From the IMG/VR virus record IMGVR_UViG_3300021431_000075, positions 512,001 through 576,000 of that record: 64,000 nucleotides of DNA; one strand, 5' to 3'. The notes beneath the pieces are model-generated. The model did not search any database. It was not told where the DNA came from and saw nothing but the letters and a program-made list of their open reading frames with translations. Numbering within the stretch: position 1 is the stretch's first letter; every line of letters begins with the position of its first letter. The stretch is from a virus (lineage: Duplodnaviria > Caudoviricetes). This document shows positions 22,409-49,148 of the stretch, one piece after another. The position numbers and the translations under genes were made by a program.

Positions 22409-22882
22409 TTATTGTTCTTCTTCAACTTCAAAATTTTCAAGATTTGTAGATGGTTTCTTGCTCTTTCTTCCGTTCTTTGACGGACTCTTTTTCTCTTGAC
22501 TGTTTTCAACAGGTTCTCCGTCAAGCATGTATATGTTTCCTATTTGCAGCGTTTCCGGTTCTTCCATAATCGAGTTAGAGTCTATCGACTGTATATTTAG
22601 AATCTGTGAGAAAGATGCTTCGAACTTTTCGATTCTTTGCGTCAGGTTATTGAGTTGCTCATTGATTTTCACGAACTCGTCGCTGTTGTTGTTCTTCAAA
22701 TCTTCGTAGTTGACAGACAGTTCATCGAACTTCTCGTTGACTGTATCAACAGAATCGACAAGATCTCCGATGCCTTTCTTTTTGCCGCCGAGAATTACAA
22801 GAACAAGCATAATTATCTGAACTACAAATACTAATAATATTAATGTCGTTTGTAGTCCGCTGCTTAATAAAAGTGTTACCAT
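22409..22882 (-). CDS. Membrane-anchored coiled-coil protein (157 aa)
   Basis: N-terminal hydrophobic helix followed by GGKKK and heptads; start overlaps the M13 peptidase stop. Confidence 0.6.
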   Translation of the reverse strand: MVTLLLSSGLQTTLILLVFVVQIIMLVLVILGGKKKGIGDLVDSVDTVNEKFDELSVNYEDLKNNNSDEFVKINEQLNNLTQRIEKFEASFSQILNIQSIDSNSIMEEPETLQIGNIYMLDGEPVENSQEKKSPSKNGRKSKKPSTNLENFEVEEEQ

Positions 22883-24894
22883 AATTTCGCTCTTCTTTCT
22901 TTGTTTATATATAATTTATCATTCTTGCTTATTTTGAATGCTGAATACCACTCGTCGAACATCGGAAGTGTGCCGTTCACCCTGATGTAGTTGGGGCAAT
23001 GCTCGTCATTTTCTATTCTGTGCTTGATGACTTCTTCTGTCGATACGCCAGCCCAGCAGTTTGCAAAGTTGAGGAAGAAACGCTTCTTCCAGTCATAGCC
23101 GTCCTTCATCATTCCGTTCTTTCCGTACAGTTCTGCTTCGCTGAACATCGGTTCTCCGCGGTCATCTTTCATTGCAAGCAGTTCAGACAGGTATCGAACT
23201 TTTTCACCGTATATCATCTTAAGCGCGTTGTATGCAATCTTGAGACCGCCAAAGTCTGCGATATTCTCATTCAGCGTCAAGTCTCCGTTGCACTTGATTC
23301 CGGGAAGCGCGTAAATCTCGTTGAAATGGTCTCTTGTGTTCTCGGATAGTTCGTCGAACTCCTCACTTTCATCATCAGTCCACCAGTCGAACACGTTTCC
23401 GTCTATGCCGAACAGTCTTCCATAACTGTCAAAGCCGTGTGTCATCTCATGACCGATAATAACACCTATGCCCCCATAGTTGTCCGAATCATCCGCATCC
23501 TTGTTGAAGAACGGTTCCTGCAATACAGCTGCAGGAAAGCAAATCTCGTTCTTCATCGGACTGTAGCATGCATTGACTTTGTGTGCATACATCGGCCACT
23601 CTTCCATATCAACATCCTTGTCGAAATAGTCATTGATATATCTATTGTGAGAATATACCATAATCTCCCTTGTCATCTCGAAGTATGACACGTTGCTATT
23701 GACCGGCATGTCGGTATAGTCTTTCCACTTGTCCGGATAACCGACCTTGCACTTCATCATGGAAAGTTTCTTCAATGCATAGTTCTTTGTTTCCGGACAA
23801 AGCCATGACTGGTTTGATATGATTTCAGCATAACTTTTCTTAAGGTTTTCTATCAATAAAATCATCTTGTCTTTCGACTCTTTCGGAAAGAATTTCTCTA
23901 CATACTTCTGTGCAAATGTCTCACTGAAGAAACTTTCAACTTTGTCAAGTTCGCGTTTCCACAGTTCAGGTCTCTCTTTGACGCCGGTCATGAACTGAAT
24001 GAACTCGAATGCGATTTCTTCTATGTCAACTCTTAATGTATCTTTATAATTATCAATAAGATGGAAGATTGCATTGTCTTTCATCTCGACAAGAGTCATC
24101 GTGTTAATCAGTTCAAATGCTTTCTTGATGGCATCAACTTGAGCGATGTTCACTTTCTTCACATCGTTCATTCCGAACCAAGACAAATACTTGTTCAAAT
24201 CAAACTCGACAAGCTTGCTTGCTTCCTCTATATCCATCATATGATAGTTATACATCGGGTCCATGCACAGTTCTTCGATGCTGTATGAAACTTCCGCTAT
24301 CTGGCAGTCAAAGTCAATAACAGTGTCTATGATTCTGTCTATGTCGTTTTTCTGGAAATTGAGGGCAGTTAGAATATCAACCTTGTTCTTTGCAAACTTC
24401 TTCAGAACTTCTTGCTTGTACGGGTCGTTTGATGTGTAATATGACTTGTTGTTCAGAAGGAGCTTCTGTGAAAGCATCACTTCATAGTGGTTCGAATTCT
24501 TGAAATCCGGGACACACTCGACGCATAGCAAGAAATTGTATGCAAGTTCTTTCTGGCAGAATTCAATGACTTCGTCTTTTGTGTTGAAAGACATTATCTT
24601 GTTGATGTACGGAAGCATGACACGTATTCCTTCCGAGTCTCTTTTGTCATAGTTGGACATCGTCTTGTAGAATGTTGCAATCTTGTATGACATGACATCC
24701 CCGCCGCCGGGATTCTTAACAATCTCGTCAAGAATTTCCCGGTTCTGCTGTCTGACTTTGTTCTCTATGACATTCCAGCAGTCCCATTGTGCTTCGTCAT
24801 CAGGTTTCGGATTCAACTCAATCCACTTTCCGGTAGCAAACTTGAAAAAGTCGTCACCGGGCTTTATGTCATTATTAATATACTCTTTGTTCAT
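22876..24894 (-). CDS. pepO: M13 family (neprilysin/PepO-like) zinc endopeptidase
   Basis: PGDDFF, KVGYPDKW, VNACY, GHEMTHGFD, ENIADFGG, RVNG motifs. Confidence 0.92.
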   Translation of the reverse strand: MNKEYINNDIKPGDDFFKFATGKWIELNPKPDDEAQWDCWNVIENKVRQQNREILDEIVKNPGGGDVMSYKIATFYKTMSNYDKRDSEGIRVMLPYINKIMSFNTKDEVIEFCQKELAYNFLLCVECVPDFKNSNHYEVMLSQKLLLNNKSYYTSNDPYKQEVLKKFAKNKVDILTALNFQKNDIDRIIDTVIDFDCQIAEVSYSIEELCMDPMYNYHMMDIEEASKLVEFDLNKYLSWFGMNDVKKVNIAQVDAIKKAFELINTMTLVEMKDNAIFHLIDNYKDTLRVDIEEIAFEFIQFMTGVKERPELWKRELDKVESFFSETFAQKYVEKFFPKESKDKMILLIENLKKSYAEIISNQSWLCPETKNYALKKLSMMKCKVGYPDKWKDYTDMPVNSNVSYFEMTREIMVYSHNRYINDYFDKDVDMEEWPMYAHKVNACYSPMKNEICFPAAVLQEPFFNKDADDSDNYGGIGVIIGHEMTHGFDSYGRLFGIDGNVFDWWTDDESEEFDELSENTRDHFNEIYALPGIKCNGDLTLNENIADFGGLKIAYNALKMIYGEKVRYLSELLAMKDDRGEPMFSEAELYGKNGMMKDGYDWKKRFFLNFANCWAGVSTEEVIKHRIENDEHCPNYIRVNGTLPMFDEWYSAFKISKNDKLYINKERRAKLW

Positions 24895-24929
24895 CGAATA
24901 ATGAATGTAACTTATCTTTCTTTGTTTGT

Positions 24930-25919
24930 CTAAAACAGAGGCTGTGAGTGTACGAGATTGTTCGGTATTTGCTGGTATCCGAGAATGTCAAGGACTTTGT
25001 TGCAGAATGACAATATTGTTTTCTCGAACTGAATATCCATGTCTATGCTGACTCTGAACTCTCCCGGAAAACTCCCCGGAACATAGGCAAATACTTCATA
25101 AGGGTTGTTTGCTGCATTTGAATAGAACCACTTGATTTTATCAGCATTCTTAATCGGGTTGTATTTTACTTTGTACTTCTTGTTCTCCGGCTTGTTCAGG
25201 AAGTAGTTGTACACTCCTGCGGCCTTGATGTGAGCCGGACACTTGTCTGCAATCACAAGCTCTCCCTTGTCTTTCAGTATGTAGTTGTCATAGTTTCCGA
25301 CGGATGAGCCGAACGAAATCATATCCGGGTCCTTGTACTCGAAATCGGCTTTATATTTCTCTATTTTTCCGACAAGCATGTCAAGACTGAGTTTCTCGTC
25401 GTTGTCACGGTACCAGTCAAGAACGAACTTGACGAAGTCCTCCATGCATTCGCGTGCGTATTCGGACGTAGAACTCTTTACAATCTCAAGTCCCTTGTAT
25501 AGAATATGAGAGCCTTTCGGCAAGTAGATGTTAGGCTCCTCCCAGCATTTTGACATCGCATATCTTTTCTTTGCAAAAAGCAGAGTCGTGTCCGCTATCT
25601 TCTCGAGCTCAAGATTCTGTATGTTCTTGTCACAGTTGTATTCTTTTGCATACTCTTCATATTTATTATTCATGTACGGTCCGAGAGAATAGTTCCACAA
25701 GTCAACAACGAACTTCGTTTGATCTTCTTTTGGAACATTGCACCATTTCAAGATTCTTCCGAACTCTACATAAATCGAGTTGTGGACGAGAATTTCGTTC
25801 GCAAAAAACATATGGGTTTCGCCGACTTCGATGTCATATACATATTCATCATCAAAGTCCGGAAGCACTTCGATGCTTTTTATATTTTCTACCTTATAAT
25901 TTGTTTGACTAAAATCCAT
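24930..25919 (-). CDS. 43: Family-B DNA polymerase C-terminal fragment fused to split-intein C-half (IntC)
   Basis: VYDIEV...FFANEILVHN|SIYV junction, then KKRYA and YKGLEIVKSS; likely start ATG 25919 (the track uses 25931). Confidence 0.9.
   Translation of the reverse strand: MDFSQTNYKVENIKSIEVLPDFDDEYVYDIEVGETHMFFANEILVHNSIYVEFGRILKWCNVPKEDQTKFVVDLWNYSLGPYMNNKYEEYAKEYNCDKNIQNLELEKIADTTLLFAKKRYAMSKCWEEPNIYLPKGSHILYKGLEIVKSSTSEYARECMEDFVKFVLDWYRDNDEKLSLDMLVGKIEKYKADFEYKDPDMISFGSSVGNYDNYILKDKGELVIADKCPAHIKAAGVYNYFLNKPENKKYKVKYNPIKNADKIKWFYSNAANNPYEVFAYVPGSFPGEFRVSIDMDIQFEKTILSFCNKVLDILGYQQIPNNLVHSQPLF
25779..25919 (-). mobile_element. Split intein C-fragment (47 aa), ending in His-Asn, +1 residue Ser
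   Basis: Blocks F/G: YVYDIEVGETHMFFANEILVHN/S. Confidence 0.9.
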
Positions 25920-25989
25920 GATTTTTAACAATTAAAACATAAGCAAATAAACTTATAATGTGAAAATATAAGTATTTTCGCTTATAAAT

Positions 25990-26355
25990 TTAGACAGGAA
26001 TCTTGATGTACACGGGAATGTAATCCGTTTGACCTTTTTCTTTGAACAAGATAAACAAATAGTCGGTATCGAATTCAATATCGTTTGTTTTGACAGGATG
26101 CTCATCATCCAGCAAGTCAACATTCACGACGGTTTCTGAAGTTGCTCCGTTCGTGTCTGTGTACTGGATGATTTTGCCGCTCAATGAACCATGTGAATCA
26201 TCAAGAACGCTAAATCTCGTCACATAGTAGTTCTTGATCTCATATTTGCTTTTGTCTGCATCAAAAAACAAGTCATTTGAACCATTTGACATTTCGATTG
26301 TAATGCCTTCTTTTTCATTGCGTATCTTGTACTTTGAAGTTAGCGGATTTTCCAT
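25990..26355 (-). CDS. Hypothetical beta-rich protein between the two split-intein polymerase genes (121 aa)
   Basis: Intact ORF; no HNH, GIY-YIG or LAGLIDADG motif seen. Confidence 0.65.
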   Translation of the reverse strand: MENPLTSKYKIRNEKEGITIEMSNGSNDLFFDADKSKYEIKNYYVTRFSVLDDSHGSLSGKIIQYTDTNGATSETVVNVDLLDDEHPVKTNDIEFDTDYLFILFKEKGQTDYIPVYIKIPV

Positions 26356-26365
26356 AAATTTAATT

Positions 26366-27409
26366 TTAAATTGTTATTATCTTGTCGGTTTCCGGATTTA
26401 TTTCTTGCGCAGTAACTGATATGAGAATTCCGTCCCTGACGACCATGCAAGAGTGATCTCCTGTCACGATGACTTCTTTGCCGGATTCTGTTGTTATCTT
26501 GTACTTTGACTTCTTGACCTTATGTCGCATGATGTATCTGATTTGTTTATCACAAACTGTATCTGTGCTTGCGTCATATGTCTTTGTCGTTAATGTGATG
26601 TCTGACGGCGCAGGTACGACTTGGGTTCCGTTCGGAAGCATTATTACAGTATCAATGTTCATGTACTTGATTGCAGCGAAAGCGTCTTTGATTGCTATCT
26701 TTTCATCATTTATATCAATAACCGAGTTCCCGTCAATGCTGTCTGTGTCTCCTGCCACGCTTAATGATTCAGTTCCGTCAAGATAATCATATTCTGGACC
26801 GGTCAAAGGCTTTGATTCCGTTGTCTTTCCCTTTGATATGTCGAATGTTCTTGCAAGTTCGGGATTGACTTTTAGTTTGTCCCATAATTTCGCATTTCTC
26901 TTGAACCAGTCGCAGTGACCTTGGCTGTTGTCCTTGATGCATCCGATTAGATCCGGCGTCAGTCTCTTTCCCTTTTTGACAGCAGGGACATAGCTCTCGC
27001 ATTCTTCCCATGTTCCGCTGGCATAATAGTCTTCCGGCTTTTCTTTTGAACCGAAGTCAAAACGTTTTCCATCTTTGTCTATGTGAATCCACTGGTAATG
27101 TAGAATAATGTCCGGATTGCTTTGAAAGATTCCGCTAAAGTACCTGTTCACAGAGTTCTCCGAGAAGTGGTTCAGGTCTCTTCCTTGCGCTGTAATGCTT
27201 TCTGCTATTGCCGTATTGTGTGCAAAGAAGTGCTTACTTCCCAATGCGCCATATACCGAGTTGATGAACTTCTTGATGGCAAGCTGCTTTGTCTCGAAGT
27301 ATCCGGCACGGCTGTGCAAGTCAACGACTTGTTTCTTCAATTCTTCTATTGGACAGTCATACGGATTCTTGAGCCACGCATACTTGAATTTGTCTATTTT
27401 ATTGTCCAT
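26366..27409 (-). CDS. 43: Family-B DNA polymerase fingers/palm fragment fused to split-intein N-half (IntN)
   Basis: Motif B QLAIKKFINSVYGALG, AESITAQGR, then motif C AGDTD followed by intein sequence; no exonuclease or motif A. Confidence 0.9.
   Translation of the reverse strand: MDNKIDKFKYAWLKNPYDCPIEELKKQVVDLHSRAGYFETKQLAIKKFINSVYGALGSKHFFAHNTAIAESITAQGRDLNHFSENSVNRYFSGIFQSNPDIILHYQWIHIDKDGKRFDFGSKEKPEDYYASGTWEECESYVPAVKKGKRLTPDLIGCIKDNSQGHCDWFKRNAKLWDKLKVNPELARTFDISKGKTTESKPLTGPEYDYLDGTESLSVAGDTDSIDGNSVIDINDEKIAIKDAFAAIKYMNIDTVIMLPNGTQVVPAPSDITLTTKTYDASTDTVCDKQIRYIMRHKVKKSKYKITTESGKEVIVTGDHSCMVVRDGILISVTAQEINPETDKIITI
26369..26740 (-). mobile_element. Split intein N-fragment (124 aa), Ser1
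   Basis: SIDGNSVIDI (block A); IMRHKVKK and VIVTGDHSCMV (block B, TxxH). Confidence 0.9.
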
Positions 27410-27447
27410 TTTTGCTTTTTTGAAAACCGATAAAAACTAAACCATCT

Positions 27448-27476
27448 ATTTTACAAAAAAAATGCCGAAAAGTTTA
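27448..27476 (-). promoter_or_regulatory. Phage middle-type promoter TAAACT-N17-TAAAAT
   Basis: Upstream of the polymerase fragment, 17-bp spacer. Confidence 0.65.
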
Positions 27477-27530
27477 AAATAAAAAAGACAGAAATCAAAA
27501 TTTCATTGAAAACTGTCTTTTGCTTAATAG

Positions 27531-28679
27531 TTATTTCTTGTCTTTTGCTGTTTTTGAAGCAGTTGATGACTTTGATTTTGCTTTGCTTGACGCAGGTTTC
27601 TTCTTTGTAGCAGGTTTCTTTGCAGGAGACTTTGGCTTTGGTTTTGATGAAGTTGCTGCTGGTTTCTTTTCTTCAACCGGCTTTTCAACTTCAACTGGCT
27701 TTTCAACTTCAACTGGCTTTTGATCTTCAACTGGCTTTTGTTCTTCAACCGGCTTTTGTTCTTCAACCGGCTTTTGTTCTTCAACCGGCTTTTGTTCTTC
27801 AACCTGTTCTTTTTCCAGCGCTTCTGCTTCTTCAAGCATCTGAAGCATGTCAAGAGATTCTGCTGTGAATGGGTCGAGTTGTTCTTCGACTGGTTCTTCT
27901 GCTTTCGGAACCTCGATTTCCACTTTGTTCGGTTCTTCTTGTTCGGAAACCTCTTCAATGACGGCAGCATCTTCTATTGTTGCCACGACCGGTTCTTCTT
28001 CAATCTGTTCTTCTTCAACTGTTTCAGCAGTATCATCAACCCCAACAACTTTATCATCTTCTTCAATGTCATCATCAGTTCCGATGAAATCCCTTATCGC
28101 GTCAGCCATGTCTATTTCAGGCTTTTTGAAATCAACCGGAGCTGCTGGAGCATCTTGTGCTTGTGCCTCTATTTCCTTTATCTGTTCTGGAGTAAGCATC
28201 GTGGATTCTATGGTCTCGCTCTTGCGTGCCTGCTTTATCTTCATCGCTCTCCTGATTTTAGCAAGAGTGTCCTCAATTGAGTTCGCAGGATGCTCGACAA
28301 CCTTGATTCCAGCAGCCTTGTTGCTGCTCTTGTACGGTTCGTTCTCCAGACTTGTATGTTCGTCGAACTCGTCTTCCATCTGCTCGATTCTGTCCTGCCA
28401 GTTCTTGTAGTAGTCTTTCTGGTCGTTTATAATCTGATTCTCCTTAATCTTCATATATGCTTGCGCAGCATTGACATTATGGTTCATCCCTGTTATCACA
28501 TTAGGAACTCCGGTTTCCCAAGTTCCTTCTGTCGGACGCTCCACTACTCCGGAACCGTACTTCTGGTTCGGTCTATAGCTGTTGAAACTGCGGAAATAGT
28601 CTCCCCAGTCGTCAATCATATTGACTCTTGTCGTTGTCGGACCTGATGACAACGGAACATTTTTCTTCTTATTAGTCAT
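27531..28679 (-). CDS. Low-complexity protein: acidic middle, KPVEEQ repeats, histone-H1-like K/A/P/S tail (382 aa)
   Basis: Composition read from the translation. Confidence 0.65.
   Translation of the reverse strand: MTNKKKNVPLSSGPTTTRVNMIDDWGDYFRSFNSYRPNQKYGSGVVERPTEGTWETGVPNVITGMNHNVNAAQAYMKIKENQIINDQKDYYKNWQDRIEQMEDEFDEHTSLENEPYKSSNKAAGIKVVEHPANSIEDTLAKIRRAMKIKQARKSETIESTMLTPEQIKEIEAQAQDAPAAPVDFKKPEIDMADAIRDFIGTDDDIEEDDKVVGVDDTAETVEEEQIEEEPVVATIEDAAVIEEVSEQEEPNKVEIEVPKAEEPVEEQLDPFTAESLDMLQMLEEAEALEKEQVEEQKPVEEQKPVEEQKPVEEQKPVEDQKPVEVEKPVEVEKPVEEKKPAATSSKPKPKSPAKKPATKKKPASSKAKSKSSTASKTAKDKK
27672..27803. repeat. 18-bp coding tandem repeat (KPVEEQ/KPVEVE, ~7 copies)
   Basis: ttcaaccggcttttgttc-type units. 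Confidence 0.9.
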
Positions 28680-46337: not shown

Positions 46338-49148
46338 TTATCTTCCTGTCGGATAATGCATCGGCTGCCTTAGTGGACTCGCAGTCGGATAGCCTCCGCC
46401 GTAACCGGGCATCTGCGGACTTCTCGGTGCTGATGGAACGCTTGACGGATATGACGGCATCGGTGCCGACGGATAACGTCCGGTTTGCGGATATGCAGGT
46501 GGCATTTGATGCATGCTTCCTGTCGATGAAGCTGTTGTTATCTTTCCGAAACCGCTTGCCGCGTTTCCGTACAGATGGGCGATGTCTGATTCCGAATATT
46601 CGTCGTCAAGTGTCTGGACTGCATATTTCTCTATGAACATGTTAACCTGCGAAAGCGTCTCTGTCATTTCATAGCTCACAAGTTCGGAAGAGCATAGCAT
46701 CATGAACCAGTCATCCAGCCAGTACTGGAATTCTTCTTCCTCGAAAGCGACAGAGACGAACAAGACTGTTGTCGCAAGGTCGTCGTGCATGACTCCGCCT
46801 GAATATGTTCCTGTCTTCGATTTCGCGAATGCCTCAAGCTGCTGAATGGTTGAGTTTGACGACACTTCATGGTCGTGTGTTATGATGATTTGTCTTCTTG
46901 AAATCATCTTCGCGCCGAGTTCGCAGAAGTATCCCTTTCCCTTGCTGCCGGAGACTGTCTTGAATCCCATCTCCTTCTTTGTCGCTTTGCTGGAATGGAA
47001 AGTCTTGATGACAAGAGACGGATAGAACATGTCATGCTTCTTGAATATCTTCAGCCAGTTGTGTCCATTGAAATTAATTTCTATATTGACACGGCAGTTG
47101 TCGAACTCTGTTCCGAGATATGTCATTTGTCCGTTCTTGAGCCATGTGAACACGATATGCTTTGCCGCTTCCGCGCATTCTTCCTCGTCGAACACCTGAT
47201 CCATATAGACTCCGACCTGTCTGAACGCGATGCAGTCTTTCAGTTTGACTTCCTTGTATCCGTCTCTGTTCGCTTCGATTATCTGCGGGTCCAAGAATTC
47301 GATTTTGTATATCGTTATGACGTTCCAGTCCGAATCTTCCTGTCCCTTTTCTCCGATTTGCTTTCCCTCTGCCGTGTCTATCTGCAGAAAGAACCTGCTT
47401 GTCATCAGGTCTTGTTCTGTCAACTGGTCCGGATGGAAGTCGGGATGCCAGAACAGTTTGGAAGAGACGTTTCTCGGAATGCCGTATATGTCAACAGAAC
47501 GGAAGAAGCAAGCATGGTCGTTCATCCACTTCAAATCAACAGGAGAAACAAGCTTTGATGCATCAGAGTCGAAAGAGAGACCGAATTCCTGATTGAAGTT
47601 CGCTTCGCCGAATGCCGCTATCTGCTTCTGCTTCCATTCTTCCGTATCGTGTCCCGGAACCTGCCAGTAGTCAACCCTCTTGTATCTGAATCCGTTCCAC
47701 TTCGGATTGTCGTGCGAATAGACCATGTCGCTGGAGAACAGCAGGTCTGCATAAAGGTTATGACGTCCGCGTGGCGTTGAAAGAACGATGATTTGCGATA
47801 TTTCCGATGATGAAAGAGTCGGCCAGACAGACTGCCAGAACGGAACAATTTTGTTTGCCGGAATAAGAGCGCACTCGTCAACCATGAGAAGATGAATGGT
47901 AGAACCTGTCGCCGGCGTCTCTGATGTTGCGGAACACTTGAGCGTGCATCCGTTCTCGAACTTGATTGTCGTCTTTGATACAGAGCGGACTCCGGGCTTG
48001 AGCCAGAACGGAAGTCCCTTTAGGATGTCTGTGACCTTGTCAAGAATCTCTTCTGCAGTATCTCCCTTGTTTGCTACGATTCTTGCATTCTTGTCCTTGT
48101 TGAATATCATATAATAGACCATGAATGCGGCAGTCGTTGTCGTGTTGTGCGAAAGTATTCCGTTCGTGAAGTAAGAATGACAATAGTCGTTTATTGAAAC
48201 ATCGCACATGAACTCTTTCCGGTCTGTCTTTGTGACAGAGATGACGCGAGAGAAACCTGTCGTGACTTGTAGCAGGTCAGATGTTGTCAAGTCCTTTGCA
48301 TATTTCCAGACATTTGTCGATGTCTTGACAAGATGCGTGTCCGCGCATTCGAGAGAGAAACCGTTCTCCAACTTGATTATATAGACAATGAACGGCTTCG
48401 TGATATGAAAGTGAGTAGCCGGCTTGTAGTCGTTGTTTTCAGAAAGAACAAGCGTGTCTATGTTCGTTGTCTGTATTATCTTCTTGTTAAAATGCTGAAA
48501 GTCTTTGATTTTGAACTTTCTGCACATGCACTTGTATATGAAACCGGACATGATGTTGTTCTTGTTGAACTTGTGCGCTGTGTATATCAAGAAGTCAAGA
48601 ATCGTCGGTTTCTTGATTGAACGGTAGTATATTTCATAGAGTGGAACTTGCTTGTTGTTGATTGTGACGTTTGTGTTCAGGGAAACGCATTTTCCGGTCT
48701 GTCTTGACTGAAGCAGGATGTTGAGTCTTGACTTCGGAAGGAACATCTCGTACTCTTCATTGTAGTACGAATCAGTGTACATTTCGATGACATCTTTCTG
48801 GTAGTCCCTGAGCTTGACAGTCATCCTGCCGCGGTCCGTCAAGAACTTGCAGTATGTCTCGATGAAGTAAAACGGATCGTCTTGGCATTTCTGCATCTCG
48901 TCCCACTCTTCTTTTGTGTACTCGAAGGCGAGGTCCGCGTTACGCCACTCTATCTTTCCATGAAAGAACGGAATCATGTCCGGAGCAGTTCCGTTCTCTA
49001 TGTCTTTCAGTATCTGGTTTATCTTCTCTGTCGAGTATATCTCCGCTCGTTTCTCCTTCTCAAGTTCCTTGTCGAGATAGTTTGACTTGTCATCACGAAG
49101 TTCAATCTGCTCCCGGCGTGGAATAGACATCCTGCGCTTTGTTGGCAT
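46338..49148 (-). CDS. 17: Terminase large subunit (T4 gp17-like), intein-containing
   Basis: LRDYQ, SRQTGK|intein|TTT, VDECA, STPRG, FNQEF, DTAEG, MHDDL. Confidence 0.95.
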   Translation of the reverse strand: MPTKRRMSIPRREQIELRDDKSNYLDKELEKEKRAEIYSTEKINQILKDIENGTAPDMIPFFHGKIEWRNADLAFEYTKEEWDEMQKCQDDPFYFIETYCKFLTDRGRMTVKLRDYQKDVIEMYTDSYYNEEYEMFLPKSRLNILLQSRQTGKCVSLNTNVTINNKQVPLYEIYYRSIKKPTILDFLIYTAHKFNKNNIMSGFIYKCMCRKFKIKDFQHFNKKIIQTTNIDTLVLSENNDYKPATHFHITKPFIVYIIKLENGFSLECADTHLVKTSTNVWKYAKDLTTSDLLQVTTGFSRVISVTKTDRKEFMCDVSINDYCHSYFTNGILSHNTTTTAAFMVYYMIFNKDKNARIVANKGDTAEEILDKVTDILKGLPFWLKPGVRSVSKTTIKFENGCTLKCSATSETPATGSTIHLLMVDECALIPANKIVPFWQSVWPTLSSSEISQIIVLSTPRGRHNLYADLLFSSDMVYSHDNPKWNGFRYKRVDYWQVPGHDTEEWKQKQIAAFGEANFNQEFGLSFDSDASKLVSPVDLKWMNDHACFFRSVDIYGIPRNVSSKLFWHPDFHPDQLTEQDLMTSRFFLQIDTAEGKQIGEKGQEDSDWNVITIYKIEFLDPQIIEANRDGYKEVKLKDCIAFRQVGVYMDQVFDEEECAEAAKHIVFTWLKNGQMTYLGTEFDNCRVNIEINFNGHNWLKIFKKHDMFYPSLVIKTFHSSKATKKEMGFKTVSGSKGKGYFCELGAKMISRRQIIITHDHEVSSNSTIQQLEAFAKSKTGTYSGGVMHDDLATTVLFVSVAFEEEEFQYWLDDWFMMLCSSELVSYEMTETLSQVNMFIEKYAVQTLDDEYSESDIAHLYGNAASGFGKITTASSTGSMHQMPPAYPQTGRYPSAPMPSYPSSVPSAPRSPQMPGYGGGYPTASPLRQPMHYPTGR
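48144..48689 (-). mobile_element. Cis mini-intein (182 aa) in the terminase Walker A motif
   Basis: Starts CVSLNTNV, block B CADTH, ends NGILSHN|T; no endonuclease motifs. Confidence 0.9.

Follow-up and report, generated by a model that had tools for sequence, protein, structure and literature searches.

We re-examined a 64,000-nucleotide stretch of viral DNA (hereafter, the window), bases 512001-576000 of IMG/VR record IMGVR_UViG_3300021431_000075, in which two nearby open reading frames (ORFs) on the minus strand encode parts of a family-B DNA polymerase (PolB) and each carries one half of a split intein located at polymerase motif C. The record is a complete virus genome of 673,114 bp with direct terminal repeats and a GC content of 40.7%, and an ORF elsewhere in it encodes the remaining part of the enzyme; we refer to the three parts, in polymerase order, as pieces 1, 2, and 3. 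Close relatives come from gut metagenomes. The pieces share 48-56% amino-acid identity with those of the Prevotella Lak-A, Lak-B, and Lak-C megaphages and 52% with those of ‘Wendovervirus sonii’, a horse Lak phage of 660 kb (P0161); because of these identities, we take the genome to be a distant Lak-group member or relative.

The two genes in the window, pieces 2 and 3, are separated by a short ORF that we call the orphan (Table 1). Piece 2 begins about 45 residues ahead of motif B, as do gp43B-1 of phage Aes508 and the intein-free gp43B relatives, and contains the second fingers helix with motif B (KKFINSVYG, residues 46-54), a palm segment, and the N-terminal half of motif C (AGDTD, residues 219-223), after which Ser224 opens the N-terminal intein half (IntN). 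Piece 3 starts with the C-terminal intein half (IntC) and continues with SIYVEFGR, KKRYA, the thumb, and a C-terminal ...PLF tail, completing motif C as DTD↓SIYV (the arrow marks the intein insertion point). Pfam assigns both DNA_pol_B and Intein_splicing to each of the two ORFs. An earlier note on this DNA had described the first as carrying motif B, AGDTD, and a 124-residue IntN, and the second as a 47-residue IntC ending in VHN and followed by SIYV and KKRYA; the sequence reads exactly so. An upstream TTG at 25931 is likewise open as a start for piece 3, and we favor the ATG at 25919 because the relatives are 327-329 amino acids long.

Table 1. Features of the split polymerase locus, in window coordinates unless marked as genome coordinates
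Feature	Position	Strand	Details
Piece 1 (exonuclease and motif A)	genome G000:C1:478274-479872	-	532-amino-acid ORF about 58 kb away in the same genome
Piece 2, whole ORF	26366-27409	-	347 amino acids; stop TAA at 26366-26368
Piece 2 N-extein (gp43B-1 equivalent, residues 1-223)	26741..27409	-	PHROG 1918/262
IntN, 124 amino acids	26369..26740	-	Ser1 = agc 26740-26738; NX motif MRHKV; block B/N3 VTGDHS; Pfam Intein_splicing 1.3e-8
Orphan ORF, 121 amino acids	25990..26355	-	between the IntN and IntC genes; stop TAA; no Pfam match
Piece 3, whole ORF	24930-25919	-	329 amino acids from the ATG at 25919; stop TAG at 24930-24932
IntC, 47 amino acids	25779..25919	-	block F YDIEV; block G VHN; Asn codon 25781-25779; no Cys
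Piece 3 C-extein (gp43B-2 equivalent, 282 amino acids)	24930..25778	-	Ser+1 = tcg 25778-25776; PHROG 1918 E=1e-36
Promoter-like bipartite motif TTAAAC-N16-TGTAAAAT	27448..27477	-	located ~40 nt 5' of the piece 2 start
Terminator-like hairpin AAAGACAG ... CTGTCTTT and T run	27481..27521	-	read directly in the sequence

The exonuclease domain and motif A are absent from the window, an observation from which a third, separately encoded subunit had been predicted. A whole-genome search with PF03104 and PF00136 found matches in exactly three places, namely the two window ORFs and the ORF that we call piece 1, and so located the predicted subunit. Piece 1 carries the exonuclease motifs (DIEV) and motif A (DFASLYPS), aligns to residues 114-486 of RB69 gp43 (its best match in the PDB), and matches PHROG 2062 over positions 105-500 of 502. 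Its alignment to Aes508 gp43A runs end to end, and both proteins terminate at the same point in the fingers. As the Lak alignments start at the fourth codon of the ORF, an ATG, its product is probably 529 amino acids long. Piece 1 stops past motif A and short of motif B, and piece 2 begins just ahead of motif B, so the polymerase is divided in the fingers at the same position as gp43A/gp43B of T4-like phages, which agrees with the non-covalent split proposed earlier. Together the three pieces hold all of the catalytic motifs (exonuclease, A, B, C, and KKRYA). Neither PF00476 (PolA) nor PF07733 (DnaE) had a match anywhere in the complete genome of 673 kb, and there was no further PolB.

The intein was aligned to known split inteins, and it matches the Ser1/Ser+1 intein of Aeromonas phage Aes123 PolB1, the type that had been suggested for this DTD↓S site. 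Against the sequence of the Aes123 crystal structure (PDB 9HTH), IntN gives E=5e-13 over 125 residues and IntC gives E=6e-3; IntN is about 37% identical to Aes-type IntN. The signatures of a class-1 intein are present: Ser1, block B VTGDHS (TxxH), the block F Asp (YDIEV), the terminal HN, and Ser+1 (LVHN↓SIYV). VTGDHS aligns with VTADHS of Aes123, and IMRHKV aligns with IMKHTV; the latter contains the NX-motif His, which is preceded by Arg here (RH), and an Arg or Lys at that position is a signature specific to Ser1 inteins (PMC10189870). The same residues are kept across the family. The first intein residue is Ser in 108 of 111 IntN cluster representatives and Thr in the other 3, and HN↓S is found in 83 of 83 IntC representatives. 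Y.MRHKV and VT.DHS.MV.R are each kept in 90% or more of the sequences in a sample of 62 IntN, on which these internal motifs were scored in place of all 111 representatives. Cys is missing altogether from 34 of the 111; the IntN studied here has two, the number given in the earlier note, at intein positions 63 and 98, both non-conserved.

We also modeled the complex of the two halves, using residues 210-347 of piece 2 and residues 1-62 of piece 3 together with three controls. The IntN-IntC model scored 0.85, compared to 0.01 for the best of the three controls, and passed a score mark that is attained by 58 of 80 solved complexes and by 2 of 110 mismatched pairs. Contact agreement among runs was at least 93%, with a predicted local distance difference test (pLDDT) value of at least 70 for the partner.

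Joining pieces 2 and 3 at the intein boundaries gives a virtual product of 505 amino acids, the predicted junction of which spans ...AGDTDSIYVEFGR. In seven relatives (P0042, P0044, P0047, P0072, P0172, P0192, P0211), gp43B is a single intein-free gene that is 47-57% identical to this virtual product and has its N-terminus at the identical position; GDTD↓S(I/V/L)Y is uninterrupted in all seven, and three of them read exactly GDTDSIYVEFGR. Three relatives (P0217, P0169, P0234) have a contiguous (cis) mini-intein of ~170 amino acids at the same site, and the split, cis, and intein-free states all occur among the more than 100 relatives. With regard to detecting the junction by mass spectrometry, the N-terminus of the peptide proposed earlier, SVAGDTDSIYVEFGR, is not tryptic, as the closest K upstream precedes P; a long tryptic peptide over the predicted junction starts after GK (TTESKPLTGPEYDYLDGTESLSVAGDTDSIYVEFGR).

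We mapped intein state (split, none, or cis) onto a tree of 119 C-exteins, built by a quick IQ-TREE run (LG+G4) with Aes508 as outgroup and with several long branches flagged. At least 14 changes of state are needed on this tree, of which the starred branches force at least 9, and the C-exteins of a split form (P0165) and an intein-free form (P0195) are 97.2% identical. From these two observations, we conclude that the cassette is gained or lost on short time scales in this clade.

Selection was assessed by comparison with an 83%-identical relative with matching gene order (L014), using the proportions of non-synonymous (pN) and synonymous (pS) differences. Synonymous sites are saturated (pS 0.65-0.91), whereas non-synonymous differences are few: pN/pS is about 0.05-0.06/0.65-0.76 for the exteins, 0.16/0.71 for IntN, and 0.11/0.91 for IntC, and pN for the orphan is 0.23. 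By this comparison, none of pieces 2 and 3, the intein halves, and the orphan is decaying.

The gene layout, the homology, the conservation of motifs, the selective constraint, and the intein-free junction of relatives are all shown by the analysis. The PolB of this phage is thus encoded as three genes, and we consider it very probable that pieces 2 and 3 are joined by trans-splicing and that their product then assembles non-covalently with piece 1. The result would be a T4 gp43-type replicative polymerase of a Lak-like megaphage built from three polypeptides. Piece 1, of about 529-532 amino acids, would contribute everything from the N-terminal and exonuclease domains through motif A to the first fingers helix. 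IntN and IntC would associate and fold into a class-1 Hint domain, which would excise itself by oxyester chemistry involving Ser1, Ser+1, and the terminal Asn, joining pieces 2 and 3 into a 505-amino-acid gp43B with an intact motif C, GDTDSIYV. This gp43B would then bind piece 1 across the fingers, by analogy with the two-subunit gp43A/gp43B of some T4-like phages. Petrov and colleagues are said to have reported the two-subunit precedent in the Journal of Molecular Biology in 2006, in a paper to which PMC2677866 refers. As for its origin, the break at the intein would be the derived state of a mobile ‘fractured gene’ cassette, consisting of IntN, a free-standing Vsr-like endonuclease, and IntC, that is common to Aeromonas T4-like phages and Lak phages; here, the endonuclease would have been replaced by the orphan, and on account of that replacement the element is probably no longer mobile in this phage but stranded.

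Several points weigh against this reading. Splicing itself is a step that we infer from the sequence, and the association of gp43B with piece 1 is one that we infer by analogy. The Aes123 PolB1 intein does splice in vitro, but the wild-type form does so with an efficiency of only about 30% (PMC11923092). The docking of IntN and IntC in the complex model may reflect likeness to 9HTH: as a similar complex has already been solved, a pass indicates likeness and is no proof of binding by this particular copy. The homing endonuclease is missing from the gap between the intein halves, and a selfish-element view predicts that such an intein will eventually decay, although the pN/pS values make decay so far unlikely. 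Finally, TAG is recoded in Lak phages and is also the stop codon of piece 3. Reading this codon as Gln would add only six residues to piece 3, and the relatives end at the same ...LF/LW. Recoding would leave the relevant ORF boundaries unchanged.

The alternative that fares best, while still improbable, is that the intein halves only dock, such that the polymerase is a non-covalent complex of three or four parts that retains the folded intein. Docking is what the complex model favors; some split inteins splice poorly in vitro (PMC11923092), and splicing in this phage is a prediction. However, docking alone needs none of the splicing residues, and these are all kept, with Ser1 or Thr1 in 111 of 111 IntN and HN↓S in 83 of 83 IntC representatives. 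In addition, the intein interrupts the catalytic DTD↓S loop of motif C, which is unbroken in the intein-free relatives and in which a retained Hint domain of 171 amino acids would occupy the active site, and the related Aes123 intein does splice (PMC11923092).

It is very improbable that the fragments are remnants of a decaying polB and that a host or other polymerase replicates the phage. The gene is indeed in pieces, and the usual homing endonuclease has gone from the gap. Yet the exteins and both intein halves are under strong purifying selection at saturated synonymous divergence, every catalytic motif from the exonuclease to KKRYA is intact, and the three-piece layout is kept in Lak-A, Lak-B, and Lak-C and in more than 100 metagenomic clusters. 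The intact polB elsewhere in the genome that the earlier note had envisaged for this case was not found; the genome has no PolA, DnaE, or second PolB, the pN/pS of the fragments is low, and pieces 1 and 2 have a promoter-like motif in common (see below). Least probable of all is that the split is an assembly or annotation artifact, or is bridged by recoding or frameshifting so that IntN, the 121-amino-acid ORF, and IntC form one contiguous intein with an insert domain: Lak phages do use TAG as Gln (PMC6784885), and cis mini-intein alleles exist in P0217, P0169, and P0234, but the three ORFs lie in three different frames (the intein halves themselves being separate ORFs in different frames) and the stops of piece 2 and the orphan are TAA rather than TAG, which led us to reject read-through; furthermore, the three-ORF layout is repeated in independent assemblies (L014, L015, L016), no group I intron or other Rfam family was found in 24500-27800, and the orphan family also occurs away from inteins.

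The orphan fills the slot that a Vsr-like homing endonuclease holds in relatives. Its orthologue in L014 has an equal position and 63% identity. The search of 1.8 billion representatives yielded ten relatives, two of them next to IntC genes: one lies between IntN and IntC (L016) and the other directly upstream of an IntC gene (L017). Those of L019 and L020 are located away from inteins. The predicted structure is all-beta with a pLDDT of 87. We considered and rejected a homing endonuclease identity for the orphan, as it has no match to a Pfam or nuclease family and its all-beta model has no match to a solved nuclease. Searches for other likenesses gave only a weak PHROGs match (E=0.003) to a family of unknown function, ESM Atlas scores of at most 0.76, nothing at E<=0.001 in a Foldseek comparison of the model with the PDB, and a best Z of 4.5 in VIA-align wide, to generic beta-propeller blades. 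As the gap ORF is not a recognizable nuclease and Lak-B5, Lak-C1, and Aes508 keep a Vsr-like ORF in the gap, the locus looks like the post-endonuclease state of the fractured-gene arrangement. A bolder proposal, which we regard as rather unlikely, is that the cassette is actively mobile in gut megaphage populations, repeatedly breaking and re-fusing an essential replicase, and that in this lineage the endonuclease was swapped for an IntC-linked all-beta orphan that is a possible new accessory factor for the split polymerase or the intein (e.g., one keeping an aggregation-prone IntN precursor soluble) and not inert cargo.

Transcription signals were examined across the locus and the genome. The earlier note had assigned piece 2 a promoter of its own, and a promoter-like element is indeed found there as well as before piece 1. 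Genome-wide, the bipartite motif TTTAAAC-N16-TGTATACT (TGTAnAnT) has 19 matches, compared to 0-4 in shuffled sequence, and in 18 of the 19 the spacer is exactly 16; matches lie upstream of piece 1 (genome 479930) and piece 2 (genome 539477), and none of the 19 lies before the orphan or piece 3. This distribution points to common regulation of pieces 1 and 2 and to a single operon comprising piece 2, the orphan, and piece 3. A sigma-70 consensus scan returned 12 promoter-like matches, about twice the shuffled mean of 6.3, and called zero terminators, and is less informative than the genome's own enriched motif; it missed the terminator-like hairpin of Table 1 because the loop is long. This hairpin would end the upstream gene and separate it from the piece 2 unit. 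Upstream of the pieces, inspection by eye gave no convincing match to the Bacteroidetes -7 motif TAnnTTTG. Another upstream motif that is enriched, (G/A)ATAAATATCTTATAAT, resembles the T4 late promoter TATAAATA.

Piece 2 also contains an insert of ~75 amino acids between motifs B and C (residues about 95-190; window about 26840-27130, minus strand), with conserved Cys and His residues (EEC ... GC ... GHCDWF). Relatives of this genome's type have the insert too, as do some intein-free gp43B forms, and Lak-A, Lak-B, and Lak-C lack it; it is possibly a palm module that binds metal. We considered whether piece 2 holds a group I intron like that of Aes508 gp43B-1 and rejected this: an Rfam scan of 24500-27800 at E<=1 gave zero matches to group I introns or other families, and the ~75-residue segment reads through in frame and has a protein sequence that relatives conserve. 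Directly downstream of the polymerase pieces, at 22876-24894 on the minus strand, lies a gene for an M13-family (neprilysin-like) zinc metallopeptidase, which is unusual for a phage and has kept its position in the 83%-identical relative. Just downstream of the peptidase gene in that relative (L014:11007-12949) are genes for a Cas12f1-like TnpB (PF07282) and a Y1 transposase (PF01797), a pair that constitutes an IS200/IS605-type element.

Other inteins were noticed in the genome. A T4-type large terminase of 936 amino acids (PF03237; window 46338-49148, minus strand) has an apparent cis mini-intein of ~183 amino acids at about 48141-48689, inside the Walker A loop (...SRQTGK↓C ... SHN↓TTTT, i.e., Cys1/Thr+1); as the Pfam intein match is weak (E=0.0024), the evidence for it comes mostly from the residues at the junctions. 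A C5 cytosine DNA methyltransferase at about 374.0-375.6 kb of the genome (G000:C1; L008:1165-2721, plus strand) has a cis intein at the catalytic Pro-Cys motif (SSP↓C ... VHN↓CTDFS), with Pfam values of 6.9e-12 for Intein_splicing and 3.3e-39 for DNA_methylase. A 210-amino-acid ORF at about 380.9-381.6 kb (G000:C1; L011:1363-1995, plus strand), directly upstream of an nrdD gene (ATP-cone and NRDD), has a weak Hint/intein N-terminal match (E=0.005) and could be a half-intein or a Hint-like remnant.

Lak-type megaphages are among the largest known phages and are common in animal and human guts, and in our reading their replicase would depend on three dispersed genes and a protein-splicing step. 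Automated annotation gives the pieces no label beyond ‘DNA polymerase’ or ‘hypothetical’. A split polymerase should be allowed for when replication modules are reconstructed, polB phylogenies are built, and completeness is checked for these phages. The searches also yielded over 100 cluster representatives of natural Ser1/Ser+1 split inteins that come from mesophilic phages of the gut. As only a handful of such inteins have been characterized (Aes123/CL/CLm, PolB16, LCGC14), this pool would be useful for orthogonal, thiol-independent ligation tools. The coexistence of split, cis, and intein-free alleles, some on nearly identical exteins, amounts to a natural series in which one can follow fractured genes as they form, shed the endonuclease, and diverge.

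The combination of a non-covalent split in the fingers with a trans-splicing split at motif C is not new. Aes508 (JN377894) is annotated with an equal three-piece layout, in the order gp43A, Seg-like GIY-YIG endonuclease, gp43B-1 with IntN, Vsr-like ORF, and IntC with gp43B-2, and a group of T4-like phages is thus already known to have the combination; every one of the three pieces has an existing PHROG family. The T4-like Aeromonas phages (Aes508, Aes123, Aes012, AS-gz) have in common with this phage the split point in the fingers, the DTD↓S site, Ser1/Ser+1, a T4-type PolB, and a homologous IntN. In Aes508, however, the pieces are adjacent, with two homing endonucleases between them, and gp43B-1 has a group I intron, whereas here piece 1 is remote, no intron or endonuclease was found, the gap holds the orphan, and piece 2 has the ~75-residue insert.

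As for the intein itself, the closest characterized system is that of Aes123 PolB1 (9HTH), from which the CL and CLm ligation tools were engineered (PMC11923092, PMC12707363); related candidates are the CP21 PolB1, LCGC14 PolB2, and GOM-OPS-1 PolB2 inteins (PMC12707363). The two share the class-1 Ser1/Ser+1 type, the NX His, TxxH, the host gene, the insertion site, and the proportions of the split (IntN ~120 and IntC ~40-47 amino acids). They differ in that the Aes123 intein is cysteine-less, while the one described here has its two non-conserved IntN Cys and is therefore not strictly so; its function is predicted from sequence, and its source is a gut megaphage with a Bacteroidota host lineage, not a T4-like phage of Proteobacteria.

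Lak-A, Lak-B, and Lak-C phages (MK250015-29; PMC6784885, PMC8346664) have a three-piece PolB with a split intein at the equal site. In Lak-B5 and Lak-C1, piece 2 with IntN is followed by an ORF of 372-378 amino acids (TAG read as Gln) and then by IntC with piece 3. The Lak-B5 gap ORF is 33% identical to the Vsr-like ORF of Aes508 (E=2e-33), so the whole cassette is homologous between the two phage groups; it matches the ‘fractured gene’ organization of Dassa et al. (PMC2677866). The distance to piece 1 varies from 6-9 kb in Lak-B to ~58 kb here and ~225 kb, on the opposite strand, in Lak-A and Lak-C. The GC content is 26-31% in Lak genomes, which also recode TAG and retain the Vsr-like endonuclease in the gap; it is 40.7% in this genome, which is without the endonuclease and has in piece 2 the insert that they lack. 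The Lak genome papers (PMC6784885, PMC8346664) make no mention of an intein or a split polymerase, and our literature search found no published description of either in Lak phages within the library searched.

The arrangement also resembles the ‘fractured genes’ of Dassa et al. 2009 (PMC2677866), in which the two intein halves sit at a single locus in unchanged order and are separated by an ORF, as they are here. That study defined the Vsr-like endonuclease family carried by the Lak relatives, did not have PolB among its 26 loci, and proposed a model in which loss of the endonuclease (step III) yields the layout of this locus (PMC2677866). Compared to those genes, the slot is occupied here by a conserved ORF that is not a recognizable nuclease, and the enzyme has a second, intein-free split at an unlinked position. 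What distinguishes this phage from the known systems is the orphan in place of the endonuclease, the dispersed pieces, the shared promoter-like motif, and the ~75-residue insert.

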